Positions 22,983-36,647 of a stretch of 64,000 nucleotides of DNA are shown piece after piece (position 1 is the stretch's first letter; each line of letters opens with the position of its first letter). Position numbers and translations under genes: made by a program. A model generated the notes under the pieces. It did no database searches. It was not told where the DNA came from and saw only the letters and a list, made by a program, of their open reading frames with translations. Origin of the DNA: Acidobacteriota bacterium (GTDB lineage: Bacteria; Acidobacteriota; Terriglobia; Acidiferrales; UBA7541); the NCBI GenBank assembly GCA_013286165.1, contig JABDGF010000002.1, positions 30,501-94,500 of the forward strand, read 5' to 3'.

Positions 22983-23276
22983 TTGGGAAACTCACCGGAA
23001 GCCCGCGTACGCCGCAGTTCAAATGTTGTCTCCCGCGTAGTCGCTGATGAAGCGATCGTGATTCCAATTCGCCGAGGCGCGGCGGATATGGATTCGATTT
23101 TCACGTTCAACGAAACGGGGACCAAGCTTTGGTCGCTCATCGCAGAAGGCCAGAGTCCGGAAGCACTGGCGGCGCACCTCGAGGGGGAGTACGGGCTTTC
23201 GCCGCAGCGAGCTGCAAACGACGCGGCAGCATTTATCGGTGAGCTCAAGCTGGAAGGATTGGTCGAATCCGTTTAG
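22983..23276 (+). CDS. PqqD-family peptide chaperone (RiPP recognition element)
   Basis: 97 aa with a TTG start (AGGA 8 nt upstream). PqqD-like layout FTFNETGTKLWSLIAEGQSPEALAAHLEGEYGLSPQRAANDAAAFIGELKLEGLV. Confidence 0.8.
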   Translation: MGNSPEARVRRSSNVVSRVVADEAIVIPIRRGAADMDSIFTFNETGTKLWSLIAEGQSPEALAAHLEGEYGLSPQRAANDAAAFIGELKLEGLVESV

Positions 23277-23317
23277 CTCGACGTTTTGTTTGAACCCTGC
23301 AGGGGCAGGGACTTGGG

Positions 23318-24610
23318 ATGAACGAACAAACTTACGCCGCATTCAGCAGCGGCCTTCACAGCCGCTACTTTGGAAAACGCTCGCCGGTCGAAGTGTCGAT
23401 CGAGCTGACGCGCCGTTGCCCGCTGGAATGCAAGCACTGCTACAACAATCTTCCGATGGCGGACGCCGCCGCTCGCAAGGGCGAGTTGACGTTTGCGGAG
23501 TACCGCCGCCTGCTCGACGAACTCGTGGAAGAAGGCTGCCTGTGGATCTGCTTCACCGGCGGCGAGATTTTCGCACGCGCCGATTTCCTGGACATCTACC
23601 AATACGCAAAAAATAAGGGCTTCCTGATCACGCTGTTCACCAACGGCACGATGGTGACCGAGCGGATTGCGAATTTTCTGGCCGAATGGCGGCCGTTCGC
23701 GATTGAAATCACTTTGTACGGCGCGACCAAAGAAACGTATGAAGCGCTGACACAAATTCCCGGCTCGTACGCGAAATGCATGCGCGGCATTCGCATGCTG
23801 AAGGAACGCGGGCTGCCGCTAAAGCTCAAGACGGTTCCCACGACAATCAACCGCCATGAAGTTTTCGAGATGAAGCGCATGGCGGAAGAGGATTTCGGCG
23901 TCGAATTCAAATTCGATCCGCTGGTGAATCCGCGCATTGACTGCTCGCAGAGTCCCGTGGAAGTACGGCTCGCGCCGGAAGAAGTGGTGGCGCTCGATTT
24001 CCACGACCCGAAGCGCGAACGCGACTACGGCAATTTGCTCGCGCGTGATATGGCGAAGCCGGTGACGCCGGGCGATGGGCAGGTTTACACCTGCGGCGGC
24101 GGCGTGACGGCGTTTGCGATCGATCCTGAGGGGCGCATGAGCATCTGCGTGCTCTCGCATAAGCAGACGTACGACTGGCGCAATGGCTCGGTTCACGAAG
24201 GATGGAACGATTTTCTGTGGCGCACGCGCACGCAGCCGAAGACACGCGCAACGAAGTGCGATTCGTGCCGGATCAAGTCGCTGTGCAGCATGTGCGCGGC
24301 GAACGGCGAGCTGGAGAATGGTGACGCCGAATCGCCGGTGGATTTCCTCTGCGAAGTGGCGCACCTGCGCGCGATGACGCTCGGCACGGAAATTCCAGCG
24401 CACGGCGATTGCGAATGCTGCAAAGGCGGCACGTCGTACGAACCCCTGCGGCGCTCGTCGGAAAAGATCCGGAATCGGCAAATTGATGTTGGTAGTTGGA
24501 CTCCCGCAATTCCCACCGTTGCTGCAACGCTGCTTCCGATCATCTCGGATGCGGGATCTTGCGGCTCAGCCCCCGGTGGCGGCTGCGGATCCTGTGGATC
24601 ACACAGATAA
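23318..24610 (+). CDS. Radical SAM/SPASM-domain peptide-modifying enzyme
   Basis: 430 aa. CPLECKHC (Cys codons 23417, 23429, 23438). SPASM-type cysteines YTCGGG..MSIC..KCDSCRIKSLCSMC..FLCEVAH. An extra 68-aa Cys/Gly/Ser-rich tail. Confidence 0.9.
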   Translation: MNEQTYAAFSSGLHSRYFGKRSPVEVSIELTRRCPLECKHCYNNLPMADAAARKGELTFAEYRRLLDELVEEGCLWICFTGGEIFARADFLDIYQYAKNKGFLITLFTNGTMVTERIANFLAEWRPFAIEITLYGATKETYEALTQIPGSYAKCMRGIRMLKERGLPLKLKTVPTTINRHEVFEMKRMAEEDFGVEFKFDPLVNPRIDCSQSPVEVRLAPEEVVALDFHDPKRERDYGNLLARDMAKPVTPGDGQVYTCGGGVTAFAIDPEGRMSICVLSHKQTYDWRNGSVHEGWNDFLWRTRTQPKTRATKCDSCRIKSLCSMCAANGELENGDAESPVDFLCEVAHLRAMTLGTEIPAHGDCECCKGGTSYEPLRRSSEKIRNRQIDVGSWTPAIPTVAATLLPIISDAGSCGSAPGGGCGSCGSHR

Positions 24611-24626
24611 AGAGGGCCCGCGAATT

Positions 24627-24833
24627 ATGAGTGAAGAAAAAAACAACCACGCAGGACACGGCGACTCGGTCGCGGCGGCGAAGTCTGAACCGTCGGCGTA
24701 CGAGCCACCGAAGATGATCCGCGTCAGTCTGCGCCCGGAAGAAGCCGTCCTGGGTCACTGCAAGATTCCCGGTTCGGCCGGGCCGGTCAGCGCGAGCTGC
24801 ACGGCCACCACGTGTCAATCGTTTGGATCGTGA
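24627..24833 (+). CDS. Candidate RiPP precursor peptide (68 aa)
   Basis: MSEEKNNHAGHGDSVAAAKSEPSAYEPPKMIRVSLRPEEAVLGHCKIPGSAGPVSASCTATTCQSFGS. The ATG is 16 nt after the rSAM stop, with AAGAGGG at 24610-24616. Charged Cys-free N-terminal part; C-terminal 25 aa hold all 3 Cys and end in Ser. Confidence 0.7.
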   Translation: MSEEKNNHAGHGDSVAAAKSEPSAYEPPKMIRVSLRPEEAVLGHCKIPGSAGPVSASCTATTCQSFGS

Positions 24834-25786
24834 TCGCTGCGCCAATGATCGCTACTGACTCCATTCTCGAACTGTCTGCCGCGAATCGCACGCGCACGCG
24901 GTTTGCCGCGCGCATCGGCGGAATCACGCTCGGCGTCACGTCCGGCCACGCAAATCTTTCGATCGTTCCCGATTCTGAATTGAGCAAGTTTCTGATTCCG
25001 GACCAGCGCTGCGACATCGAGTGCACGGCGCGCTTTGTCCGCGAGGTGACGGATTTTAGCGGCGAGCTGGTTTTCGATTCCGGCGGACTGTGGAAGCTCT
25101 ATCGCAATTCCGGCGGCTACTGCTTCCGCTTCGCGACAAGCTTTTTGGGCGACGCGCCGTACAAACAGGCGATCGTCTCGCCGGATTTCACGAAAGTGCG
25201 TATCGATTTGGTGGAGCGCTTCTACGACTCGTCCAAACCCTGGAATCCGCTGGAATATCCGCTCGACGAATTGTTGTGGATTCACCGCCTCTCGACGAAA
25301 CAGGGCGTCGAGATGCACGGCTGCGGCGTGATCACGCCGGACGGTCGAGGTTTTCTGCTCACGGGTCATTCGGGAGCGGGCAAGAGCACTTCCGCGCGCA
25401 TGTGGGCGCGCAATCCTGAGACGCGCGTACTGAGCGACGACCGCATCATCCTGCGCGCAGAAGGCAATCGCATCTGGATGTACGGCACGCCGTGGCACGG
25501 CGACGCCGGCATCGCCGAAGCCGACCGTTTCCCGCTGGACGGAATTTTCGTGCTCGAGCACGGCACGGAGAATCGGTTGCAGCCTCTCAGTGCCACGAAA
25601 GCGTCCGCCGAACTTTTCGCGCGCAGCTTCGTGCCGCATCACTCGGTTGCGGGCCTCAATTACGTTTTGGAATTCTTCGACCACCTCACGTCGCTCGTTC
25701 CATGCCATTCGTTCTCATTCGTGCCGAACGCCACTGCCGTGGAGGCGCTGCTTGGATCAAGCACCGGAAAAATCGCAGCGGCGTGA
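24812..25786 (+). CDS. HPr-kinase-like P-loop protein (putative peptide Ser kinase)
   Basis: MHGCGVITPDGRGFLLTGHSGAGKSTSARMW..VLSDDRIIL mirrors the HprK C-terminal domain (P-loop nt 25364-25390). Start ambiguous: GTG 24812, GTG 24830 (GTGA overlap with the peptide stop) or ATG 24845. Confidence 0.75.
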   Translation: MSIVWIVIAAPMIATDSILELSAANRTRTRFAARIGGITLGVTSGHANLSIVPDSELSKFLIPDQRCDIECTARFVREVTDFSGELVFDSGGLWKLYRNSGGYCFRFATSFLGDAPYKQAIVSPDFTKVRIDLVERFYDSSKPWNPLEYPLDELLWIHRLSTKQGVEMHGCGVITPDGRGFLLTGHSGAGKSTSARMWARNPETRVLSDDRIILRAEGNRIWMYGTPWHGDAGIAEADRFPLDGIFVLEHGTENRLQPLSATKASAELFARSFVPHHSVAGLNYVLEFFDHLTSLVPCHSFSFVPNATAVEALLGSSTGKIAAA

Positions 25787-28700
25787 ACGGCGCGACTCGC
25801 GCCTGTTCACACAGATCGCCGGAGAGCTTCTCCGCGATGGTGTGCCGGTGCGTTTCCGCGCCGAGGGGCAAAGCATGACGCCCACGCTTGACGGCGGCGA
25901 ACTGCTCACCGTGGAACCGGTGCGCGCCGGGGAAGTGCAGGCGGGAAACATCGTGCTGACGAACGAAGCGAATTGTTTGCAAGCGCATCGCGTGGTTTCA
26001 ACGTGCAACGGCAGCAATGGCGGGAGCGACGTGCTGGCAATCCAGGGCGACGCCGGCTGGCACTCCGAAAACGTGTCGCGCGAAAGCGTGCTGGGCAGAA
26101 TTACTCAATCCGAGAAAGACGGGCACATTATGAAACTCGACAGCCGCGCCGCCTACTGGCGCGCCGCCGTACACACGTTCACACGCCGCGCAGCCGTTGC
26201 CGTGGCGCTCAGGCTCCGTCGCGCCGCTCCGCTCACAGCGATTGCGCTCACCGCGTGCGCGATCTTTGCTGCATCCGCGCCGGCCGTGCGGGCGCAGACG
26301 GATCTGGCACTCACGTCTTCGGCATTGCCCTCGACGGCCACTCCTTCGGGAACGATCACCTACACGCAAGTGGTGACGAACAACGGACCGAATGCGGCGA
26401 CCACCGCCGTCCTGTATCAGCAGACGCCGCCGGGCACGACCTTCACATCGATTTCCACGCCCGCCAACTGGAGCTGCGCAACTCCGGGAGCGGGCAACAC
26501 CGGCGCCGTCACGTGCACAGACGGTGCGAACATGAACGCGAACACGTCGGTGACGTTCACCTACGTCGTCACGGTAAATTCCTCCGCGACCGCCGGTTCG
26601 ACGATATACAACTGGACGAACATTACATCGCAGACCACCGACACCGTTCCGGCCAACAACAGCGCCACGGTCGGCACGCTGGTGGAAACTGCGGGAGACG
26701 CGGATTTGGGCGTTACGGTATCGGCGTCGCCGACGCCGGTCTTCGTCACTTCGCCGCTCACGTACAAAATCGTCGTCACGAATTACGGCCCATCCGCGAC
26801 CACAGCTTCGACTCTGACCGACGCGCTGCCAACTGGTTTCACGGAATCTTCCGTCGTGGCGACGCCATCGACTGTCTCTTGCTCCGGCACCACCACAGTC
26901 ACGTGCTCGCTCGGCGCGATCGCCAACGGCGGCACCGCGACGATCACCATTTCCGGAACAAGCTCGGGCACGGCGTCCACGCTCACAAATACGCCCAAGC
27001 TTACCGGCACCACTCCAACCGATCCGTACTCGGGGAACGACGCCGCCACCGTGATCACCGTCGTGCAGCCGCTGGTTTGCGCGAATCCCGGCAACGACGG
27101 CGCTGCCCCGACATTTACCGGCATCGTGAACTCTTACTATCCACCGGGCGCAACGGGCACGCTCGCATCCGGCGCTACTGCGATCAAAGTGGGCACCGTA
27201 GCGGCAGGTGGCGCGACGAAAGCCATCGCCAACGGCGACTTGGTCCTCATCATTCAAATGCAGGCCGCTACGATCAACCCTGACAATGGCAGCGACTACG
27301 GCGATGGAGTCTCCGGAGATCCCGGATACGGATCGACGGCGCTGAACGGCGTCGGCAATTACGAATTTGTGACGGCGACCTCCAACATCAAAAATGGTTC
27401 GTTCAACATTTCCGGCGCAGGCGTAGGTGGCGGGCTGCTCTATTCGTATCTCGACAACGTCGCCACATCGACGCAAGGCGCACAGACGTATCAGATCGTT
27501 CGCGTGCCGCAATACACGTCCGCGACTCTGAACTCCGCATTGGCTGCTCTTCCGTGGAATGGAACAGTCGGTGGCATTCTCGCAATCGACGTGCAGAATC
27601 AGCTCACGCTCGGCGGTACCGTCGTGCTCGATGGCGACGGTTTCCGTGGAGGCGGCGGCCGCGAACTGGGCGGCGCGACCGGACTGCTGGCCACCGACTA
27701 CGTTTCCGTCTCGACAAAAAATGCGAACGGTTCAAAGGGCGAAGGCATCGCGGGAACTCCCGCTTACGTAACGCCGGTTCCATTCTCAGGAATCACCAAC
27801 ACCAGCACGCCGACGGCGACGGCGCAAACTTACGCGGAAGGAATTCCGTCGGGCAGTTACGCGCGAGGCGCTCCGGGTAACGCGGCGGGCGGCGGCACGG
27901 ACGGAAATCCAGGATCGAACAACGAAAATAGCGGCGGTGGCGCGGGGGGCAACGGCGGCATCGGCGGCAACGGCGGATTCGCGTGGCAGTCTGCCGGCAT
28001 CGGCGGCGGGTTCGGCGGCTACCTATTTCCTGCGACGACCAGCTCGCTGGTGATGGGCGGGGGCGGCGGCGCAGGCACTACGAACGACGGCTCCTACTAC
28101 ACCAGCAGCGGCGGCAACGCGGACTGCACCGGTTGCAATGGCATTTACAGTAGCGGCGCGCCCGGCGGCGGTATCGCGATCATTCGCGCCGGGTCCGTGA
28201 CCGGCACGGGAACAATTACTTCGAACGGCGCGACCGCTCTCAGCGTGGAAAATGATGGCGGCGGTGGCGGCGGCGCGGGCGGATCGATTTTGATTTATTC
28301 GAATTCCGGCACGCTCGCGGGCCTCACAGTCGCTGCGAACGGCGGCCTCGGCGGCCACACTTGGGAAACGTCGGCTCCTGGCGCATTTCCTGGCAACCGG
28401 CATGGTCCGGGTGGCGGCGGCGCGGGCGGCGTGATTTTCCTCTCGTCGGCTCCAGCGAGCGCATCGGTTGCCGGCGGCGCGAACGGATATTCGACCACCG
28501 CGAACGATTCCTATGGTGCTACGCCTGGCGCGGCCGGGTTCGTTTCGCAAAATTATTCCATCACGCAGGCTCCGGGCGTCCAGTCTGGCGCATATTGCAC
28601 AAGCGCGGACCTCAGCGTCACGAACGTCGGGACGCCGAATCCGGTTCAGCCCGGCGGCACGATCACGTACACGCAGGTGGTGACGAACAACAGCACCACC

Positions 28701-31700
28701 AACGACGCGATCAACGCCGTCTTATCTGAAAATATTTCGCAGAACACTACGTTTACGTCGATCACCGCGCCTACGGGCTGGTCGTGCGTCACCCCGGCAG
28801 TCGGCGCCACCGGTTTGATCACCTGCACCAACCCGGATTTTACAGAGGGAACGAACGCGACTTTCAAAGTCGTCACCGGCGTACCGGCAGCAACCGCGAG
28901 CGGTACGCAGATTCTTAACACGGCGTCGATAGGCTCCGGCACCAACGATCCGAATCTCGCGAACAACACTGCGAGCGTGCTCACTCTTGTCGCGGCATCG
29001 ACCTCCGCCGACATTCAGGTGACCAAGACCGCGAGCGTCACTCAAGTCGCGCCAGGCAACACGATCACCTACACCATCGTCGTGAAAAACAACGGCCCGG
29101 CCGCTGCGCTCAACGTTACGTTCACTGACGCGACTCCGGGCACCACGACTTTTGTGTCAGGCGCGCAAATCGGAACGGTTTGGCCGACCTGCTCGACACC
29201 GACCGTGGGCAGCGCGGGCACGAGCACGTGCTCGATCGCGTCTTTCGCTTCCGGTGCGTCCACCACTTTCACTTTGATTGTCACTGTACCAACGGGCACT
29301 ACGTCAGGAACGGTGATCACGAACTCGGCGAATGCTGCGTCGGCCTCGACTCCCGACCCGAACCCGAACAACAACACCGGCACGGCCAGCACGACGGTGA
29401 TTTCTTCCACGCAAAATAATCTGAGCATCACGAACACCGTGACGCCCAATCCGATCTACGCGGGCCAGAATGCCGTTTTCACGCAGGTGGTGACGAACTC
29501 CGGTCCTGCGGCCGCGACGACTCTCACGGTGACCGGCAACGTTCCCACAGGCTCGACTTTCGTTTCACTCACAGCTCCGACCGGATGGACGTGCACTAAA
29601 CCTGCGGTCGGCGCCACCGGCACCTACACTTGCAAATACACCGGCAATGGCGGCAGTTTCGCTTCCGGCTCGACCGGCACATTCACGCTCAACGTTCTTG
29701 TTCCCACGGGCACCGCCGGCGGCACTTCGATTACGAACACCGTCACTGCCACGGAAGCTTCGGGCGTGGACGTTTCCACCGCGAACAACAGCGCCACCGC
29801 GACCACTGTCGTTTACGGTTTGACGCAAGCGGACGTTGCCATCGTGAAAACGGCGGCGCCGAATCCGGTCGATCAGGGCACCAACCTTACTTACACGCTG
29901 CAAGTGACGAACAACGGTCCCGCGTCTGCGCAGAACGTGGTCGTGTCCGATCCGCTGCCGACGCAAGTCACTTACGTTTCGGCCAGCACGTCGCAGGGAA
30001 CTTGCGTGCAAGCGAGCGGGACAGTCACTTGCAATCTCGGCACGCTCACCAACGGCGCTTCCGTGACGGTGACGATCAATACGACCGCCACGACGTTCAG
30101 CTCCAGCAGCTTCGCTGCGAACACGGCGAGCGTTACTTCATCGACGTCCGACCCGAACCTCTTGAACAACTTTTCATCGACCATCACCACGATCGTCTCG
30201 CCCACGGCTGTGACCGTGACCGGTTTCCACGCCACGGCTCAATCCGGCGGAGTGGTGCTGGAATGGAAGACCAGCTCCGAGCTGCGCAACCTCGGCTTCC
30301 ACATTTATCGTGAAGATGCGGCGGGCCGCCACCAAGTGGATCCGTCTCTCATCGCCGGAGCGGCACTGTTTGCGCGCGGCGCACAGCCGCAGCACGCAGC
30401 GAAAACGTACCGGTGGGTCGATCCCCAGGGAACCACGCAATCGACGTACACACTCGAAGACGTGGATCTCTCCGGAACGCGCACGACGCACGGGCCTGCT
30501 GTCGCCGAGTCTTCGAATGAAACCTCGACGGCTGCATCGATAGCGCAGCCGCAAGCCGCGCTGCTCACGCAATTCAATCAGCTGTATCACTCGACATTGA
30601 CGGTTCGCACCACGCCGCGCGTTGTGAACGTCACTTCGCCCGCGCCCGTCGCGGAAGTCACTTCCGGCTCATTGAACGAAATGCCCGCCGTGAAAATTTC
30701 GGTGCAGTCGGAAGGCTGGTACACGGTCTCCGCGAGCCAACTCGCGGCTGCGGGATTCAACGCTTCCGGAAATGCCGCCACGCTCAAGCTCTATGCGGAA
30801 GGCGTCGAGCAGCCGTTCCTAATTGTTGGTGGTCAGTCCGGCGCGCTGGGTTCCAACGGTTCGATCCAGTTCTACGGAACGCCGATCGATACTCCATTCA
30901 GCGGCACGCGCGTGTACTGGCTCGTAAACGCCACGTCGGCGGGAAAGCGCATCGTCACCGCCGTCGCGCCTAATTCTGCGCCGGCGGCGCCCGCGGATTT
31001 CCTTTCGACCGTGGTGCTCGAGCAGCGCACGACATACTTCGCCGCGCTTCTCAACGGCCAGAACAACGACAATTTCTTCGGTGCTTCGGTGACCACCGAA
31101 CCGGTGGATCAGGTTCTCACCGCGACGCATACCAATCCTTCGTCGAGTTTGCAATCGTCGATCGACGTCACACTCCAGGGTGTCACCGCCGGTGCTCCGC
31201 ATTCGGTGAGCGTACAGCTCAACGGTTCCACGCTCGGCTCGATGGAGTACACGGGCCAGTCGAATGTGACGAACACATTCCCGGTGCAGAATTCGCTGCT
31301 TCAGGAAGGGAACAACACCGTCACCTTGACCGCGAACGACGGCGAGAACGACGTCAGCCTCGTCCAATCGATCGCGCTGCACTATCCGCACACCTACAAC
31401 GCAGACTCGGATTGGCTGGAAGCCACCGCGCCTGCCAATACGAAAGTCGCGATTGGTGGATTCGCAAACGCCGGCGTCCAGGTGTTCGACATCACCGACC
31501 CGCTGAACATCGTGGCGTTGCAGGCGACGGTGGCGCAATCGAACTCGGCCTACACCGCGACCGTGATCGCACCTGCCGGAAGCGGCGGCGCGTCGCGCAC
31601 GTTGCTTGCGGTGGCGAACGACCAGCTGTCGCAGCCTTCGGGGTTGACCTATCACGCACCGAACCCGCTGATCTCCTCGCGCGCGGGAGCGGACGAAATT

Positions 31701-32735
31701 ATCGTCACCACCGAAGATTTCCAGCAGACGCTTCAGCCGCTGCTCAGCCTGCGCCAGTCGCAGTCGCGCACGGCCACAGTCGTCTTGATGGATCAAATTT
31801 ACGACCAGTACAACTATGGCGAACGTTCGCCATTCGCTTTGCAGACGTACCTGCACCTCGCCTCCACTGAGTGGCGCACTCATCCGCAGGATGTGCTGCT
31901 GGTGGGCACGGCGTCGGTGGATCCGCGGAACTACCTCGGCTTCGGCTACTTCGATTTCGTGCCGACGCGCTTGATCGAAACGCAGGCATTCAAAACGGCT
32001 TCCGACGACTGGCTGACCGACTTCGATTCATCGGGCTTTGCGACGATGGTGATGGGACGTTTGCCGGTGCGCACCGCAGCCGATGCGTCACTGGTGATTT
32101 CGAAGATCGTCAACTACGAGCAGGGAAATTCAAATGGCTCGTGGAATGCACAGGCACTGTTCGTCGCGGACCAGAATGTCGGCGCGAACTTCTCGCAGGC
32201 CACTACGACGCTTGTGCCGCTGTTGCCGGCGTCCGTATCGAAGACGACGATTCTAGCGGACACGCTCGACCCAACCACCGCGGAGCAGCAGATTCTCGCG
32301 GGTCTGAACGCAGGTGCGGTGCTGGTGAATTATTCGGGCCACGGCGCGGAGCAGCAGTGGTCGTTCGAGGACCTTTTCGACGACACTACCGCCGCGGGAC
32401 TGACCAACGGCAACAAGCTGCCTGTGTACGTGCTGATGGATTGCTTGAACGGATTCTTCCACGACGTTTACGCGGAAAGCCTTTCCACTTCGTTGATGCT
32501 CGCGCCGAAAGGAGGAGCGGTCGCGGTGTGGGCGTCTTCCGGATTCACCACGCAGCCGCCGCAGGCCGCCATGAACCAGGCGTTCCTCGTGCAGCTCGCG
32601 GCGAACCCGAAGACTCCGCTCGGACTCGCCACGCTGCTCGCAAAACGGGGAGTGGGGGACGCGGACGTTCGGCGTACGTGGATTCTGTTTGGCGACCCGT
32701 GGATGATCGTCGCGTTTCCGGGCGCGACGAAGTAG
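25752..32735 (+). CDS. Giant multidomain protein: N-terminal S26B/SipW-like peptidase domain, TM/signal segment, DUF11 repeat arrays, Gly-rich block, C-terminal peptidase C25-like domain
   Basis: 2327 aa from TTG 25752 (GGAGG 25741-25745). Peptidase boxes GQSMTPTL (Ser codon 25872), AHRVV (His codon 25986) and IQGDAG. Internal ATG 26130 plus a signal-like segment ending AVRA-Q (26297). DUF11-type repeats (TYTQVVTNNGP.., TYTIVVKNNGP..) at ~26.3-27.0 and ~28.6-30.2 kb. Gly-rich block at ~27.9-28.5 kb. C25-like YSGHG (His codon 32340) and MDCLNG (Cys codon 32442). Confidence 0.75.
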   Translation: MDQAPEKSQRRERRDSRLFTQIAGELLRDGVPVRFRAEGQSMTPTLDGGELLTVEPVRAGEVQAGNIVLTNEANCLQAHRVVSTCNGSNGGSDVLAIQGDAGWHSENVSRESVLGRITQSEKDGHIMKLDSRAAYWRAAVHTFTRRAAVAVALRLRRAAPLTAIALTACAIFAASAPAVRAQTDLALTSSALPSTATPSGTITYTQVVTNNGPNAATTAVLYQQTPPGTTFTSISTPANWSCATPGAGNTGAVTCTDGANMNANTSVTFTYVVTVNSSATAGSTIYNWTNITSQTTDTVPANNSATVGTLVETAGDADLGVTVSASPTPVFVTSPLTYKIVVTNYGPSATTASTLTDALPTGFTESSVVATPSTVSCSGTTTVTCSLGAIANGGTATITISGTSSGTASTLTNTPKLTGTTPTDPYSGNDAATVITVVQPLVCANPGNDGAAPTFTGIVNSYYPPGATGTLASGATAIKVGTVAAGGATKAIANGDLVLIIQMQAATINPDNGSDYGDGVSGDPGYGSTALNGVGNYEFVTATSNIKNGSFNISGAGVGGGLLYSYLDNVATSTQGAQTYQIVRVPQYTSATLNSALAALPWNGTVGGILAIDVQNQLTLGGTVVLDGDGFRGGGGRELGGATGLLATDYVSVSTKNANGSKGEGIAGTPAYVTPVPFSGITNTSTPTATAQTYAEGIPSGSYARGAPGNAAGGGTDGNPGSNNENSGGGAGGNGGIGGNGGFAWQSAGIGGGFGGYLFPATTSSLVMGGGGGAGTTNDGSYYTSSGGNADCTGCNGIYSSGAPGGGIAIIRAGSVTGTGTITSNGATALSVENDGGGGGGAGGSILIYSNSGTLAGLTVAANGGLGGHTWETSAPGAFPGNRHGPGGGGAGGVIFLSSAPASASVAGGANGYSTTANDSYGATPGAAGFVSQNYSITQAPGVQSGAYCTSADLSVTNVGTPNPVQPGGTITYTQVVTNNSTTNDAINAVLSENISQNTTFTSITAPTGWSCVTPAVGATGLITCTNPDFTEGTNATFKVVTGVPAATASGTQILNTASIGSGTNDPNLANNTASVLTLVAASTSADIQVTKTASVTQVAPGNTITYTIVVKNNGPAAALNVTFTDATPGTTTFVSGAQIGTVWPTCSTPTVGSAGTSTCSIASFASGASTTFTLIVTVPTGTTSGTVITNSANAASASTPDPNPNNNTGTASTTVISSTQNNLSITNTVTPNPIYAGQNAVFTQVVTNSGPAAATTLTVTGNVPTGSTFVSLTAPTGWTCTKPAVGATGTYTCKYTGNGGSFASGSTGTFTLNVLVPTGTAGGTSITNTVTATEASGVDVSTANNSATATTVVYGLTQADVAIVKTAAPNPVDQGTNLTYTLQVTNNGPASAQNVVVSDPLPTQVTYVSASTSQGTCVQASGTVTCNLGTLTNGASVTVTINTTATTFSSSSFAANTASVTSSTSDPNLLNNFSSTITTIVSPTAVTVTGFHATAQSGGVVLEWKTSSELRNLGFHIYREDAAGRHQVDPSLIAGAALFARGAQPQHAAKTYRWVDPQGTTQSTYTLEDVDLSGTRTTHGPAVAESSNETSTAASIAQPQAALLTQFNQLYHSTLTVRTTPRVVNVTSPAPVAEVTSGSLNEMPAVKISVQSEGWYTVSASQLAAAGFNASGNAATLKLYAEGVEQPFLIVGGQSGALGSNGSIQFYGTPIDTPFSGTRVYWLVNATSAGKRIVTAVAPNSAPAAPADFLSTVVLEQRTTYFAALLNGQNNDNFFGASVTTEPVDQVLTATHTNPSSSLQSSIDVTLQGVTAGAPHSVSVQLNGSTLGSMEYTGQSNVTNTFPVQNSLLQEGNNTVTLTANDGENDVSLVQSIALHYPHTYNADSDWLEATAPANTKVAIGGFANAGVQVFDITDPLNIVALQATVAQSNSAYTATVIAPAGSGGASRTLLAVANDQLSQPSGLTYHAPNPLISSRAGADEIIVTTEDFQQTLQPLLSLRQSQSRTATVVLMDQIYDQYNYGERSPFALQTYLHLASTEWRTHPQDVLLVGTASVDPRNYLGFGYFDFVPTRLIETQAFKTASDDWLTDFDSSGFATMVMGRLPVRTAADASLVISKIVNYEQGNSNGSWNAQALFVADQNVGANFSQATTTLVPLLPASVSKTTILADTLDPTTAEQQILAGLNAGAVLVNYSGHGAEQQWSFEDLFDDTTAAGLTNGNKLPVYVLMDCLNGFFHDVYAESLSTSLMLAPKGGAVAVWASSGFTTQPPQAAMNQAFLVQLAANPKTPLGLATLLAKRGVGDADVRRTWILFGDPWMIVAFPGATK

Positions 32736-33693: not shown

Positions 33694-34749
33694 CTAATTT
33701 TGTGGTTTGTCTATTGGTTTGTCGGTGGGTTTGCCGGGCGCTGGGGATGGCGGTGCTGACGCAGGCGGCTGCGTTTTCTCGTTCATCTTTTCCACCGCGC
33801 GCCGCACTTCCTCCATCGACATCGTTGCCGGCGCAGTTTGTTTCGCGGGCGATTTCTTCGCGTCAGACGCGGTGCTCGTGGGCGGGATGGGATTCGTCAC
33901 GCTCGGTGCCAGCGGCTTCACGGACGATTCCGGCGCAGTCGCGTCGGTGTGCGGCGCGTTCGAATCTTCCGTGGCGGCAGGCGGCGCAGCCGCATCCGAG
34001 GTAGCCGCTCCGCCCGTCGTTCCGGTGTCGTCCTGATACAAAACGATCAGCGAGATTCGCCGGTTCGCAGGATCAAGCGGCGCGTCCGGCTTCAGCAGCC
34101 TCTGGTCGGCGAATCCGCGCACTTGTGTAATCTGATCGGCGCCGATGCCGTTCTGCTGCATCAGGCGCCGCGTGGAATTCGCGCGATCTGCGGAGAGTTC
34201 CCAGTTACCGTAGTTGCGCCCTGCGGCATAAGCCTTCGAATCGGTGTGGCCTTCGAGCGCGAGTTTGTTGGGCAACTTGCCGAGTTCTCCGGCGAGGACG
34301 GTGATGATTTCCTGCCCGTCGCCATTGAGACTCGGGCTCCCGCTGTCGAAAAACGTGCCGCTTGCGGATTCGGTCAGTTCGATGCGCAGGCCCTCGCTCG
34401 TGATCGTCATCACGATGTGCTTTTTTACTTTGTCGAAATTCGGCATCTGCTTCAGAGCCTTCTCGAGCTTTTGCTTGAGCTGGCTCATGTTGTCGCGCGA
34501 GAGCAGAATCTTTTCGCCGGTGCCGACGAGGCTGCCTCCGGCTTTGTCTTTCGTTCCGGCCGGATCGCGGAAATATCCGGCGATTGCTTGTTGCGTCGCT
34601 TTGCTCGCGGTGCTCAGCAGCCACAGCACGATGAAGAGCGCCATCATCGCGGTCACGAAGTCCGCGTAAGCGACTTTCCACGCGCCGCCGTGATGGCCGC
34701 CGTGTCCGCCCTTCTTCTTGATGATGTAAATCGTCGGTTTCGTGGTCAT
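33694..34749 (-). CDS. motB: Flagellar-type stator protein MotB (OmpA-like peptidoglycan-binding domain) with Pro/Ala-rich tail
   Basis: KKKGGHGGHHGGAWKVAYADFVTAMMALFIVLWLL N-terminus. OmpA-like LEGHTDSKAY..NWELSADRANSTRRLM. About 120-aa low-complexity C-terminus. Confidence 0.85.
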   Translation of the reverse strand: MTTKPTIYIIKKKGGHGGHHGGAWKVAYADFVTAMMALFIVLWLLSTASKATQQAIAGYFRDPAGTKDKAGGSLVGTGEKILLSRDNMSQLKQKLEKALKQMPNFDKVKKHIVMTITSEGLRIELTESASGTFFDSGSPSLNGDGQEIITVLAGELGKLPNKLALEGHTDSKAYAAGRNYGNWELSADRANSTRRLMQQNGIGADQITQVRGFADQRLLKPDAPLDPANRRISLIVLYQDDTGTTGGAATSDAAAPPAATEDSNAPHTDATAPESSVKPLAPSVTNPIPPTSTASDAKKSPAKQTAPATMSMEEVRRAVEKMNEKTQPPASAPPSPAPGKPTDKPIDKPQN

Positions 34750-34793
34750 CGGAGCGAATCAAAATGGAGCGCGCGCTACGGATGAAAGTTGGA

Positions 34794-35666
34794 TCAAGAC
34801 GATGCCGGCGCGTCGCCCTTTTCCTTCATTCGTTTTTCGGCCACCTGGAACGTCGGCCGCACGTGGCTCGGTATGGCCCGCCGACCAATTTCAACGGACA
34901 TGCTCGGCGCCGTGCCTTTCATAAACGCGACGATCATCACGCGCAGCACCTGATAGTAAGAGTGTTCCTCTTCCGCCGCTTTACCCATGTTCGAAGCTAT
35001 GGGGCCGATCAATCCGTAGCAGAGCAGAATCCCAAGAAATGTGCCGACCAGCGCCGCCGCCACTTTGTGCCCGATTTCTTCCGGCGGCCCACCCAGAGCG
35101 CCCATCGTGATCACGACGCCGAGCACCGCAGCGACGATTCCGAGACCTGGCAGGGAATCGGCCATCGTCGAGAGGGCCGTCACAGGTGCAGTCGCGCCGT
35201 GGTGGTGCACGTCCATGTCGTTCTCGATCATTTGGTCGGCATCAAACGGTTCAATGCCGCCGCTCGACGCCATGCGGATCGAATCGCACACAAACGCCAG
35301 CGCGTGGTGATCGTGCAGGAAACTCGGATACTTCGAAAAGATCGCGCTCTGCTCGGGATTGTCGCTGTCGGTTTCGAGCGCCATTAGCCCTTCTTTGCGC
35401 GCGCGTGTAAATAGCTCGTACATCATTTTGAGCGTCAGCAGGTAGCGCTCCTCGGTGAAGCTCGAACCTTTGAACGTGCCCGTGATGCCGCCCGCGATTT
35501 TTTTCAGAATGTGCATCGGGTTCGCGATCAGCACGGTGCCGATGCCCGCACCGCCAATGATGATCAGTTCGGCGGGCTGCACCAACACTCCCAGGGCGCC
35601 GTGCTCCATCAGGTATCCGGCGACCACTGCGCCGAACACCACCAGGATTCCTATGATCGTAAACAT
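34794..35666 (-). CDS. motA: Flagellar-type stator protein MotA
   Basis: 290 aa. MFTIIGILVVFGAVVAGYLMEHG..IIIGGAGIGTVL N-terminus and C-terminal TM pair (GIVAAVLGVVITMGALGGPPEEIGHKVAAALVGTFLGILL), typical of MotA/PomA. Confidence 0.85.
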   Translation of the reverse strand: MFTIIGILVVFGAVVAGYLMEHGALGVLVQPAELIIIGGAGIGTVLIANPMHILKKIAGGITGTFKGSSFTEERYLLTLKMMYELFTRARKEGLMALETDSDNPEQSAIFSKYPSFLHDHHALAFVCDSIRMASSGGIEPFDADQMIENDMDVHHHGATAPVTALSTMADSLPGLGIVAAVLGVVITMGALGGPPEEIGHKVAAALVGTFLGILLCYGLIGPIASNMGKAAEEEHSYYQVLRVMIVAFMKGTAPSMSVEIGRRAIPSHVRPTFQVAEKRMKEKGDAPASS

Positions 35667-35723
35667 CGAACCTCAGCCCTCCACGCTGCGAATTCTGGTG
35701 CGTCTCATATCATCGGCTCGGTT

Positions 35724-36647
35724 TCACGGCGCGATCGTCGTGCAGTTGCCGCCCGACGCGAGGCTCTCGCTCAGCGCCGCCTCAGCGCGCTTGATGATCG
35801 TCACCATCGTGTCGCCCGGACGCACCGTCGTCCCGCCAAACGAAGCCGTTAACGCAATATCATCGCCCCACCATTTCAATTTCGACGAGCCGACGATTGC
35901 GCGCATCCGCTCCGCCACCGCACAGAGTTCCTGCGCGCTGCAATCGGTAAGAATCGTCAAAAACTGGTTTTGCGCCCAGCGCCCCAGAAAATCCGTGGGA
36001 CGCAGCGTGTTCTCCAGCGAATCGGTCACCACGCGCTGCATCGTCACGATCGCCGCCGGCCCATAACTCGCGCGCAGCTTGTCGAGCCCATCGACCTCCA
36101 GGCACAAAATGCTGAACGGAATTGGCAGCTCCGCAAACGTCAGCAAACCTTCGCGCAGATGCGATTCCATGTACGCAGACGACGGCGCGCCCGTCGTCTG
36201 ATCGATCAATCCGTAGTCCTGGAGTTTTTGCTGCCGACGATCGCCCTCGGTGGCTGTAATCGTCGCCGCAAAACTTTCCACCGCGCCGACGATCGACCCG
36301 TGACTGTTCCGTATCGGAACCGCCTGCATCCTCACCGGAATCCTGTGCCCCGCCTTGTGCCTGAGCGACACCTCCGCCACCACAGACTTGCCTTCGCGCA
36401 GCACGGTCTCGAGTGCATTCGCCGCATCCGACGCGATCGGCTGCTCGGCCTCTTTCTCCGCCAGCAGGTTCTCGCGAAACACGCGCCCCACCACTTCCTG
36501 CCGCAGATAGCCGGTAATCCGTTCGGCGCCCTCGTTCCAGAAAACGATTTTCCGCTCCACGTCCACCAGATAAACGCCCGTGGAAAGGTTCTCGAGGACC
36601 GTTCGGTAAATTTCCGGATTGTCGAATGCGGACATCGAGGACTCCAA
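35724..36647 (-). CDS. PAS-domain protein with degenerate GGDEF domain
   Basis: 307 aa. PAS (IYRTVLENLSTGVYLVDVERKIVFWNEGAERITGY). The GGDEF-fold C-terminus has AQNQF in place of GGDEF (nt 35961-35975) and has lost the DxD/GH..GD upstream motifs. Confidence 0.8.
   Translation of the reverse strand: MESSMSAFDNPEIYRTVLENLSTGVYLVDVERKIVFWNEGAERITGYLRQEVVGRVFRENLLAEKEAEQPIASDAANALETVLREGKSVVAEVSLRHKAGHRIPVRMQAVPIRNSHGSIVGAVESFAATITATEGDRRQQKLQDYGLIDQTTGAPSSAYMESHLREGLLTFAELPIPFSILCLEVDGLDKLRASYGPAAIVTMQRVVTDSLENTLRPTDFLGRWAQNQFLTILTDCSAQELCAVAERMRAIVGSSKLKWWGDDIALTASFGGTTVRPGDTMVTIIKRAEAALSESLASGGNCTTIAP

Follow-up and report, generated by a model that had tools for sequence, protein, structure and literature searches.

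A conserved candidate peptide-maturation operon of Acidobacteriota that combines a radical SAM enzyme with SipW-like and gingipain-type peptidase domains

Introduction

Among described pathways for peptides that are made by ribosomes and modified after translation (RiPPs), the linear polyphosphorylated peptide (LPP) clusters of Bacillota, which encode LppA/B/K/S/D/N (Popov et al., Nat Commun 2026, PMC13381572), are the closest known system to an operon found in a 64,000-nt stretch of DNA from an Acidobacteriota bacterium (contig JABDGF010000002.1 of assembly GCA_013286165.1, positions 30,501 to 94,500; hereafter the window). In LPP clusters, LppB is a discrete RiPP recognition element (RRE), the HprK-like kinase LppK polyphosphorylates Ser3 of the core, and the SipW-like peptidase LppS (S29/H68/D93) removes the leader only with the RRE, which was shown genetically and in vitro (PMC13381572). 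The authors stated that peptidases like signal peptidase I (SpI) were previously unknown in RiPP pathways, and LPPs were described as restricted to Bacillota. Cluster 3 of their sequence similarity network (SSN), left unanalyzed, holds anchorless SpI-like proteins of Acidobacteriota, Myxococcota, Chloroflexota, and candidate phyla, several of which are paired with "other" RREs; radical SAM, SPASM, and Acidobacteria are never mentioned in the main text (PMC13381572).

The operon, which is the gene run from 22983 to 32735 of the window, shares with LPP clusters a discrete PqqD-type RRE, a YxxPx[hydrophobic] leader, a P-loop enzyme of the HprK superfamily, an anchorless SipW-like S26B peptidase, and, in one related locus (L029), an association with cell-surface or polysaccharide loci. 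LPP clusters lack its radical S-adenosylmethionine (rSAM) enzyme, conserved Cys core, and C25 protein, whereas the window locus lacks an NTP-transferase and an exporter in the operon or flanks, and its kinase-like protein is of the ScmC type. Leaders also diverge past YxxP, where LPPs have VLxHQxIxFET and the window xxRVSLRPEEAVLG (LPP consensus, YxxPxVLxHQxIxFETxxS; window family, YxxPx[IMV]). With an extra rSAM enzyme and neither NTP-transferase nor exporter, the locus does not have the LPP gene set. Nevertheless, half of the pathway logic has published precedent in LPPs.

The locus is real, conserved, and uncharacterized, and we consider it reasonably probable, though well short of certain, that it encodes an RRE-dependent, RiPP-type peptide maturation system with six functional units. 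An initial annotation of this DNA had suggested a candidate uncharacterized RiPP-type pathway, which is borne out by a conserved gene set, a precursor beside the rSAM gene, and the absence of lasso genes and of an exporter. It had also held that the locus matches no characterized RiPP class. The locus is indeed a member of none of the classes tested, but recognition, kinase, and leader removal have LPP precedent (PMC13381572). In the literature searched, we found no paper on the gene set, and its sole trace is the unanalyzed supplementary table of PMC13381572. Broader literature searches led to general rSAM reviews only, surveys of acidobacterial biosynthetic gene clusters give antiSMASH classes only, and a compendium of rSAM enzymes makes no mention of a kinase or signal peptidase (PMC10288494).

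Results

The operon has the following features.
22983 to 23276, plus strand: discrete RRE of the PqqD family, 97 aa, TTG start (PF05402)
23318 to 24610, plus strand: rSAM enzyme with a SPASM-type auxiliary-cluster domain and a C-terminal extension, 430 aa (PF04055)
24610 to 24616, plus strand: Shine-Dalgarno-like AAGAGGG, 10 nt 5' of the peptide ATG (direct reading)
24627 to 24833, plus strand: precursor peptide, 68 aa (conservation, third-codon-position bias)
24845 to 25786, plus strand: P-loop protein, ScmC family, HprK/PEPCK superfamily, 313 aa when started at ATG 24845 (profile and fold matches)
25752 to 26129, plus strand: S26B (SipW/Sec11/LppS-like) serine peptidase domain at the N-terminus of a giant open reading frame (ORF) (profile matches)
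26226 to 26288, plus strand: sole hydrophobic helix of the giant ORF, aa 159-179 (Kyte-Doolittle scan)
26295 to 31697, plus strand: predicted extracytoplasmic stalk with CLIPPER/DUF11 repeats, an AgmC-N-like segment, and a PorU-like N-terminal region (PF01345)
31698 to 32735, plus strand: C-terminal Peptidase_C25 (gingipain/PorU-type) domain (PF01364; Pfam match at nt 31698-32705, stop codon at 32733-32735)

Four same-strand ORFs of the initial annotation (22983-23276, 23318-24610, 24627-24833, and 24812/24830/24845-25786) were found again, with gaps of 41 and 16 nt. For the ScmC-like ORF, GTG codons at 24812 and 24830 are alternative starts, and ATG 24845 agrees with the conserved N-terminus of close relatives. 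The proposed ribosome-binding site of the peptide gene, AAGAGGG, is present and ends 10 nt before the ATG; the closest relatives (L001-L004 and L011) have a comparable (A)AGAGGG(C) ahead of their peptide start codon. The fifth ORF had been taken for a separate 126-aa gene ending at 26129. There is no stop codon at that position, and the frame is open from a TTG at 25752 to 32735, encoding 2,328 aa.

Gene content and order are conserved among relatives. A scan of one genome per species with the rSAM protein recovered 22 loci, 21 of them complete, all in Acidobacteriota metagenome-assembled genomes (MAGs) of Acidiferrales/Acidoferrum, Terriglobales, and Thermoanaerobaculia, at 59-98% identity. 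Searches by tblastn with each window protein found the identical order of PqqD, rSAM, peptide, HprK-like, S26-like, and giant protein in 21 of 21 complete loci. The gene order is also present in six further independent loci: L023, found via an rSAM homolog, and five divergent loci. The 28 records fetched represent 27 independent loci (L024 is a cut copy of L023), and in these the six genes are never apart. Chance adjacency of ORFs is ruled out by this synteny in 21 complete and six further loci.

The divergent loci differ in how the parts are joined. L025 and L026 are organized as [rSAM]-peptide-ScmC-(S26B-C25 fusion), whereas L028 and L029 have PqqD-rSAM-peptide-ScmC-stand-alone S26B and then a separate protein that carries both C25 and a signal peptide. 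In L027 (657-10971), an S26B-Laminin_G-C25 fusion is upstream of PqqD-TPR-PqqD-rSAM-rSAM-peptide-ScmC, giving two tandem rSAM and two PqqD genes. Locus L029 (1-20450) has, besides its stand-alone S26B gene, two genes for C25 proteins that flank the core genes upstream and downstream. It also has an NTP_transf_5 gene, three permease genes of the MacB/FtsX type, and a gene for a polysaccharide co-polymerase of the Wzz/GNVR tyrosine-kinase type; this content ties the system to accessory genes like those of LPP/paeninodin clusters and to loci for polysaccharide export. Across this variation, six functions appear to make up the stable core, namely the RRE, the rSAM enzyme, the precursor, ScmC, S26B in the cytoplasm, and C25 outside it.

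Soil metagenomes commonly contain this set of genes. The rSAM query matched more than 5,500 proteins at E ≤ 1e-20, the best 120 all at least 62% identical, and the HprK-like protein had 5,854 hits. A profile of the peptide matched 5,185 clusters, all annotated "hypothetical" and having no Pfam domain. The genes for rSAM, ScmC-like protein, and peptide each form thousands of clusters at 90% identity. The complete operon in L023 (DATKLU010000001.1) is on a 241-kb contig of a MAG labeled Dongiaceae (Alphaproteobacteria) and encodes PqqD, rSAM (62% identity to that of the window), a 59-aa peptide, ScmC, and a 2,297-aa CLIPPER/C25 protein; its placement reflects either horizontal transfer or a binning error.

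The short ORF has features expected of a RiPP precursor. The recurrence that the initial annotation proposed to look for is seen, with a short peptide bearing an EEAVLGHCK-type motif beside rSAM homologs: LRPxEAVLGxCK is kept in all complete relatives, and no homologous rSAM gene without an adjacent short ORF was seen among them. The leader of the 68-aa window peptide holds YEPPKM (Y25-M30, nt 24699-24716), a YxxP motif of the lasso/LPP type. The invariant junction LRPEEAVLG (nt 24729-24755) is followed by a putative 25-aa core, HCKIPGSAGPVSASCTATTCQSFGS (nt 24756-24830), with C45, C58, C63, and a terminal G67-S68. Eighteen columns are invariant in 22 of 22 aligned sequences (Y25, E26, P28, L35-R36-P37, E39-A40-V41-L42-G43, C45-K46, G52, C58, C63, and G67-S68). 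Peptides of the five divergent loci keep Y..P......LRPxEAVLGxCK...C...C...GS, with the exception of the deviating 64-aa peptide of L027 (YAKPKILKVRLSHEQAVLVVC..., HEQAVLVVC), which has three Cys and ends in SS. Among the best 120 of the 5,185 peptide clusters, all have exactly three Cys together with YxxPx[LIVMAFY], 25-26 residues follow EAxLG in each, and 119 have the Gly-Ser end. The peptide has no family match in Pfam or NCBIfam.

Patterns of substitution are those of a coding sequence. Differences among 13 peptide ORFs number 830, 460, and 1856 at codon positions 1, 2, and 3, respectively, and synonymous codon changes exceed nonsynonymous changes both overall (1262 vs. 953) and in the Y..CK segment (710 vs. 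295). The excesses at third positions and of synonymous changes indicate that the peptide ORF is translated and under purifying selection. Because the length and sequence of the putative core are near-fixed, conservation suggests a conserved physiological role (e.g., at the cell surface, in matrix or biofilm, or in signaling) rather than that of a rapidly diversifying antibiotic. By analogy, the leader would be cleaved after A40, judging from LPP-like spacing from the Tyr, or at AVLG/H (a slash marks a candidate cut here and below), following the -3/-1 rule of signal peptidases.

The PqqD-like assignment holds at E 3.8e-13 to PF05402, above the Pfam cut-off. In NCBIfam, the best matches of the protein are PqqD chaperones of lasso peptides, below cut-off. 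All related loci keep its gene upstream of that for rSAM, and on one Thermoanaerobaculia contig (L022:1473-2098), two PqqD-like segments are in tandem upstream of the rSAM gene. The window protein is 28% identical (E 4e-18) to the "other RRE" paired with the Acidobacteria SpI-like peptidase OLE53994.1 in the supplement of PMC13381572, whereas its similarity to LppB is weak (24% identity over 62 aa, E 4e-6). Discrete RREs of lasso and LPP clusters are documented to bind [Y/W]xxPx[LVIAFY] (PMC13381572). The motif is present in 120 of the 120 top peptide hits, and a PqqD RRE with such a leader is a feature shared with the B1-type RREs of lasso peptides.

The second gene encodes, as initially called, a radical SAM protein (PF04055, E 1.2e-18). 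Its CX3CX2C motif (C34/C38/C41) and seven Cys in a SPASM pattern (C259...C277...C314x2C317x5C323x2C326...C345) are invariant in 21 of 21 relatives, as are six additional Cys (C154, C209, C365, C368, C423, and C426). The protein aligns over near its full length to models of MftC, QhpD, and PapB, all below cut-off, and matches PqqE 6c8v (E 7.5e-11) and, over residues 26-348, CteB. Its AlphaFold2 (AF2) model (pLDDT 79.5) matches PqqE, SkfB, CteB, SuiB, and anSME over 300-430 columns with a Foldseek probability of 1.0. The proposed SPASM-type half is thus supported by seven invariant Cys and by near-full-length and fold matches, but the Pfam SPASM model does not reach significance (E 0.85), also when the C-terminal half is searched by itself. 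We accept the SPASM architecture because of the near-full-length matches to SPASM enzymes and the Foldseek matches of the model; with ten invariant Cys and long structural alignments to CteB, SuiB, and anSME, the enzyme groups with rSAM-SPASM peptide maturases. No NCBIfam equivalog reaches its cut-off (MftC, 95.6 vs. 265 bits; PapB, 60 vs. 340 bits), with the PapB, AlbA, StsB, and SkfB models all far below. Since no equivalog model is near cut-off, the chemistry of the enzyme is not readable from homology.

Past the SPASM region, a C-terminal extension (window 24410-24607, residues ~365-430) has two CxxC pairs, C365/C368 and C423/C426, and ends in a Gly/Cys-rich tail, GSCGSAPGGGCGSCGSHR; the last 30 residues are modeled with very low AF2 confidence. 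An additional metal or cluster could be bound by this extension. The shorter rSAM relatives in L027 and L028 (337-375 aa) are too short to have it.

The initial annotation assigned the next protein an HprK-like layout. This stands at the level of the HprK/PEPCK superfamily, given hits, each short of its cut-off, to NCBIfam HprK_rel_B (E 6.6e-6) and ScmC (E 7.8e-6), a profile match to 1jb1, and a PEPCK/HprK fold. It does not stand at the level of family: the protein belongs to the ScmC family (PF27840, precomputed on 119 of 120 listed homologs), not to canonical Hpr_kinase_C, whose match is below the Pfam threshold (E 0.0067). SPASM and Hpr_kinase_C are thus two models that miss their thresholds although the initial annotation had named such a miss as refuting; both calls are upheld by the other evidence given here. 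A profile of 16 members aligns to Lactobacillus casei HprK 1jb1 (E 0.002) at the His, GxSGxGKS, and Asp-Asp-Arg, with MHG...GDSGVGKSE...ADDR opposite lHGcG...GhSGaGKst...sDDR. The Walker A motif GHSGAGKST is at nt 25364-25390, and H158, G174-T182, S197-R200, and GTPWHG are invariant in the family. The AF2 model (pLDDT 85.9) matches PEPCKs and Mycoplasma pneumoniae HprK 1knx with a Foldseek probability of 1.0. With the His, P-loop, Asp-Asp-Arg, and PEPCK-like fold of the HPr kinase/phosphorylase superfamily, the ScmC-like protein appears to be a member of this P-loop superfamily with an intact catalytic core.

HprK homologs had been thought to be RiPP tailoring enzymes in lasso clusters alone, which is no longer the case given LppK of LPP clusters (PMC13381572). 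Because the C-terminal Ser is the only invariant Ser/Thr of the peptide, the C-terminal phosphoserine proposed in the initial annotation would fit. The paeninodin kinase PadeK, in 2016 work of Zhu and colleagues, reportedly phosphorylates the C-terminal Ser of its precursor, and the corresponding residue is the sole invariant hydroxyl residue in the window peptide.

Alternatively, the ScmC-like protein may have a role other than phosphorylating Ser on the peptide. It could serve the rSAM-RRE complex as an ATP-dependent scaffold or chaperone, or be a phosphorylase, or an activator of Ser for elimination, and the product would be a phosphate-free, Cys-crosslinked (ranthipeptide-, sactipeptide-, or lanthionine-like) peptide. 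Only a core of ~55 residues resembles HprK, Hpr_kinase_C is below threshold, no member of the ScmC family is characterized (its NCBIfam and Pfam entries are names only), and sets of PqqD, rSAM, and ScmC are found in the SynChlorMet cassette, which has no known phosphopeptide. Conversely, the catalytic His, P-loop Lys/Ser, and Asp-Asp of HprK are invariant, HprK-like enzymes of paeninodin and LPP clusters are peptide Ser kinases, the peptide has an invariant Ser, and L029 has an NTP-transferase partner. The NTP_transf_5 gene, seen only in L029, encodes a protein that usually accompanies the HprK-like kinase of paeninodin and LPP clusters (PMC13381572). We regard a nonkinase role as unlikely, albeit one that should be kept in mind, and prefer the reading of the protein as a peptide kinase.

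The S26-like motifs at the N-terminus of the giant ORF are real, and the Ser, His, and acidic residue are conserved. G-x-S41-M-x-P, H79-R, and G99-D100 are invariant, and position 106 is acidic, being Glu in the window and Asp in most relatives, giving a predicted triad of S41 (nt 25872-25874), H79 (25986-25988), and E106 (26067-26069). The family profile matches human SEC11C 7p2q (E 1e-6), which ranks ahead of LexA and UmuD, with SMxP, HR, and GD aligned. Comparison by hhalign with LppS, using the sequence in Supplementary Data 1 of PMC13381572, gave a probability of 98.5% (E 3.7e-15) and placed S29/H68/D93 onto S41/H79/E106. This homology is visible by profile comparison only, as pairwise BLASTP of the S26B domain with LppS is not significant (E 0.28). 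OLE53994.1, a member of SSN cluster 3 of PMC13381572, is 44% identical to the window domain.

Location relative to the membrane sets this domain apart from signal peptidases. Although the catalytic motifs are kept, there is no N-terminal anchor before the Ser in the window, and the domain in this respect does not belong with S26B signal peptidases. A search of 1.84 billion representatives with the S26B domain returned 2,030 clusters at E ≤ 1e-3. Among the best 150, the catalytic Ser motif is present in 149, of which 148 have no hydrophobic segment before the Ser; 127 of the 150 are short and without a membrane segment, and 13 are long, 12 of these with hydrophobic segments only after the Ser. 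In Thermoanaerobaculia, S26B has a gene of its own, encoding ~140 aa without a membrane segment, and the giant gene follows. Because the sole helix of the window protein follows S26B and is preceded by Arg-rich sequence, the peptidase domain is predicted to be on the cytoplasmic side and the remainder of the giant protein outside.

The linkage of S26B to a surface protein raises the possibility that the locus consists of two modules, with S26B a dedicated SipW-like signal peptidase for the giant protein, comparable with SipW and TasA, and a separate RiPP cluster that uses another protease. The S26B family is by ancestry one of signal peptidases, and its members here are always beside or fused with a signal-peptide-bearing protein. 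Likewise, SipW of Bacillus subtilis is encoded next to its substrates. However, S26B in the window is on the Arg-rich, cytoplasmic side of the sole helix, with nothing hydrophobic before the catalytic Ser, and stand-alone S26B proteins have no membrane segment whatsoever, so that signal-peptide cleavage sites beyond the membrane are out of reach of their active site. Furthermore, the characterized homolog LppS is a cytoplasmic, RRE-dependent leader peptidase, and the six genes are not separate in any of the 27 independent loci. Two independent modules are therefore improbable in our estimation, and a single pathway in which S26B serves as leader peptidase is the interpretation we retain.

The remainder of the giant protein has the makings of a surface protein. 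The helix at aa 159-179 has Arg-rich sequence before it and AVRA/QT after it, and reads as a signal-anchor or as a retained signal peptide with a site like that of signal peptidase I. Stand-alone C25 proteins in L028 and L029 start with ordinary signal peptides, that of L029 ending in ...AGA/QT. The stalk matches PF01345 (CLIPPER/DUF11) in six stretches (E 1.9e-105) and includes a Gly-rich AgmC-N-like segment (~nt 27120-27758) and a PorU-like N-terminal region from ~nt 30681; the AgmC_N and PorU NCBIfam models are below cut-off. DUF11 was renamed CLIPPER and is the isopeptide-bonded stalk domain of fibrillar adhesins (PMC12617251). The C-terminal domain matches PF01364 at E 3.1e-71, with the catalytic His in YSGHGAE (nt 32340-32342) and the Cys in MDCLNG (nt 32442-32444). 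It also matches PorU 6za2 (E 2.2e-15) and RgpB 1cvr (E 1.6e-14), and GHG and DCLNG are opposite H211 and C244 of RgpB, an aligned His-Cys dyad that places the domain in Peptidase C25.

A Gln follows the predicted signal-peptidase site in the window (AVRA/QT, 26283-26303) and in relatives (LLSA/QV and AGA/QT, among L013-L016 and L029). Pyroglutamate N-termini have been described for secreted proteins of Bacteroidota, and by analogy the N-terminal Gln of the mature surface protein could be cyclized to pyroglutamate.

Pairing of S26B with C25 recurs even as the sequence between them changes. In five of seven long S26B representatives scanned, an N-terminal S26B and a C-terminal Peptidase_C25 flank a middle that differs in each; in relatives, middles of S26B-C25 proteins have DUF4394, Laminin_G_3, PATR, or no recognized domain. 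The sixth has DUF11 repeats and no C25 match, and the seventh has S26B at residues 308-416, an Invasin end, and no C25. Wherever sequence extends far enough in the examined relatives, C25 is fused or adjacent to S26B, and the C25 surface protein thus appears to be a conserved sixth component of the system, in which the C25 domain, with its catalytic residues intact, is the one constant part. We found no description, in the literature searched, of one polypeptide joining S26B and C25.

This constant partnership bears on the fate of the product. The crosslinked peptide might be a prosthetic subunit, a cofactor-like ligand, or a covalent decoration of the cell surface or of the C25 protein, following the logic of QhpD/QhpC in quinohemoprotein amine dehydrogenase or of a PorU sortase. 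The core is near-invariant across thousands of clusters, which is a trait of cofactor precursors and not of antimicrobial cores, the constantly present C25 protein has its best structural-sequence match in PorU-type C25 (NF033707 was also hit, below cut-off), the rSAM enzyme aligns along most of the QhpD maturase model, again below cut-off, and no exporter gene is present. Set against these points, there is no homology to QhpC or other qhp genes, sortase action of the PorU type is known only in type IX secretion, for which we did not search, the attachment chemistry is without support, and some way of export would still be required for a peptide of cytoplasmic origin. Such a fate is, in our view, rather unlikely. 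More elaborate still is a new RiPP class with processing in two compartments, in which a cytoplasmic SipW-like leader peptidase is coupled, by fusion or adjacency, to an extracellular C25 that trims the crosslinked, possibly C-terminally phosphorylated peptide or ligates it, in the manner of a sortase, either to the surface of the cell or to the CLIPPER stalk of the C25 protein itself. We consider this proposal speculative and hold it to be distinctly unlikely in full.

Other characterized or computed systems share some of these parts. Clusters of the paeninodin lasso type also have an RRE and a [Y/W]xxP leader, but the window lacks their Asn-synthetase-like cyclase and B2 cysteine protease, has an rSAM enzyme, and is predicted to remove the leader with a serine S26B peptidase. 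The claim that lasso cyclase, B2 protease, and exporter are missing holds for the operon and ~5 kb on either side (ten flanking ORFs scanned), and neither the cyclase nor a transglutaminase-like B2 is in the gene lists of related loci. A lasso cluster is ruled out by the lack of these two proteins.

The SynChlorMet cassette is defined by computation only, through NCBIfam TIGR04248-04251 (PqqD-like ScmD, ScmC, and the rSAM-SPASM proteins ScmE and ScmF). It shares with the window the trio of PqqD, rSAM/SPASM, and ScmC types, the window protein is in PF27840, and L027 has two rSAM and two PqqD genes. It differs in that window proteins score far from its cut-offs (ScmC, 25.4 of 125 bits; ScmE, 88.6 of 400; ScmF, 65.8 of 400; ScmD, no hit at E 0.01), and we know of no described precursor, S26B peptidase, or C25 partner for the cassette. 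Despite its similar layout, L027 is not a true SynChlorMet cassette, as the four relevant models are all below cut-off.

RiPPs with thioethers made by rSAM-SPASM enzymes (the sactipeptides of CteB and SkfB and the ranthipeptides of PapB), together with QhpD/QhpC, likewise pair an rSAM-SPASM enzyme and an RRE with a short Cys peptide. QhpC has three Cys. CteB, SkfB, and SuiB are structural matches to the window rSAM. In the window, however, the RRE is a separate protein instead of an N-terminal domain, the core is conserved instead of variable, a kinase-like protein, S26B, and C25 are added, and scores are far below every family cut-off. Similarly, relative to SipW/Sec11 and PorU/gingipain, the catalytic residues and folds are kept, but the window S26B has lost its N-terminal anchor and is predicted to be on the cytoplasmic side.

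We therefore asked how well the locus would fit within a single characterized class, be it lasso, LPP, PQQ, mycofactocin, or standard ranthipeptide/sactipeptide. The lasso/LPP-type leader motif with an RRE, the LppS-like peptidase, and the similarity of the rSAM enzyme to MftC, PqqE, and PapB point that way. The absence of lasso cyclase and B2 protease, the lack of an rSAM enzyme in LPPs, equivalog models that are all far below cut-off, and a precursor that matches no known family point the other way, and membership in any one of these classes is highly improbable. Instead, the locus would work like LPP and paeninodin systems in recognition, kinase, and leader removal and like sactipeptide, ranthipeptide, and QhpD systems in the rSAM step.

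Neighboring genes are unrelated to peptide modification. Upstream are genes for a thiamine pyrophosphate enzyme, an amidohydrolase, DUF892, and TMEM175 (K+ channel type); downstream, on the minus strand, are genes for DinB, MotB-like, MotA-like, and PAS-GGDEF proteins. The MotB-like, MotA-like, and PAS-GGDEF genes (33694-36647, minus strand) are directly 3' of the operon. A TMEM175-type gene is also upstream in four close relatives, as a fragment only in L002; this comparison covered the TMEM175-type flank alone. Scans for promoters (one promoter-like site vs. 2.2 expected) and terminators (18 terminator-like sites vs. 12 expected) were uninformative. Minus-strand ORFs at 23273-23755, 23819-24481, 24815-25708, and 25998-27512 were rejected as genes, being stop-poor shadow frames expected at ~60% GC and antisense to conserved genes.

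Discussion

Homology and conserved motifs suggest the following sequence of events. The PqqD protein would bind YxxPx[I/M/V] of the precursor leader and present the peptide to the rSAM/SPASM enzyme, which would modify the 25-aa core around its three invariant Cys, most likely with intramolecular thioether crosslinks of the sactionine or ranthionine type. The ScmC/HprK-like protein would use ATP to phosphorylate a hydroxyl, with Ser68 the best candidate given the parallel with the paeninodin kinase. The cytoplasmic S26B peptidase, tethered by the signal-anchor of the giant protein or encoded beside that protein, is predicted from its homology to LppS to cut the leader off at a site inside the invariant EAVLG junction, a step that probably depends on the RRE. 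Finally, the conserved linkage of C25 suggests that it probably performs a second, extracytoplasmic step, either processing or attachment, on the exported peptide.

Several observations weigh against this scheme. No NCBIfam model reaches cut-off for any operon protein, the Pfam SPASM and Hpr_kinase_C models are not significant, and TM-scores are low (0.30-0.45) where the ScmC-like model matches known folds. In LPPs, the kinase acts on core Ser3 and not on a C-terminal Ser. Kinase activity, phosphorylation site, rSAM chemistry, and cleavage site are all putative, being read from sequence, and the role of C25 is deduced from linkage alone. All loci but one are on MAG or metagenome contigs, and because of this, taxonomic labels such as Dongiaceae may be binning errors. 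No exporter is encoded in or near the operon; since no transporter is encoded, the C25 step and the export route are the weakest points of the scheme.

Few groups of soil bacteria are as abundant as Acidobacteriota, yet hardly any of their natural products have been characterized. The operon is one of their most conserved RiPP-type loci. It extends the principle of SipW-like leader peptidases, reported in 2026 for LPPs of Bacillota, to other phyla and to radical-SAM chemistry, and it would supply the orphan ScmC family with a testable substrate. The recurrent two-protease architecture that links S26B to C25 has no described function, and the pairing is a new feature. If processing does occur in two compartments, widespread soil Acidobacteriota would have a peptide that is covalently displayed or matured at the cell surface. 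A physiological role for the three-Cys core would open an entry into the cell-envelope biology of Acidobacteriota.

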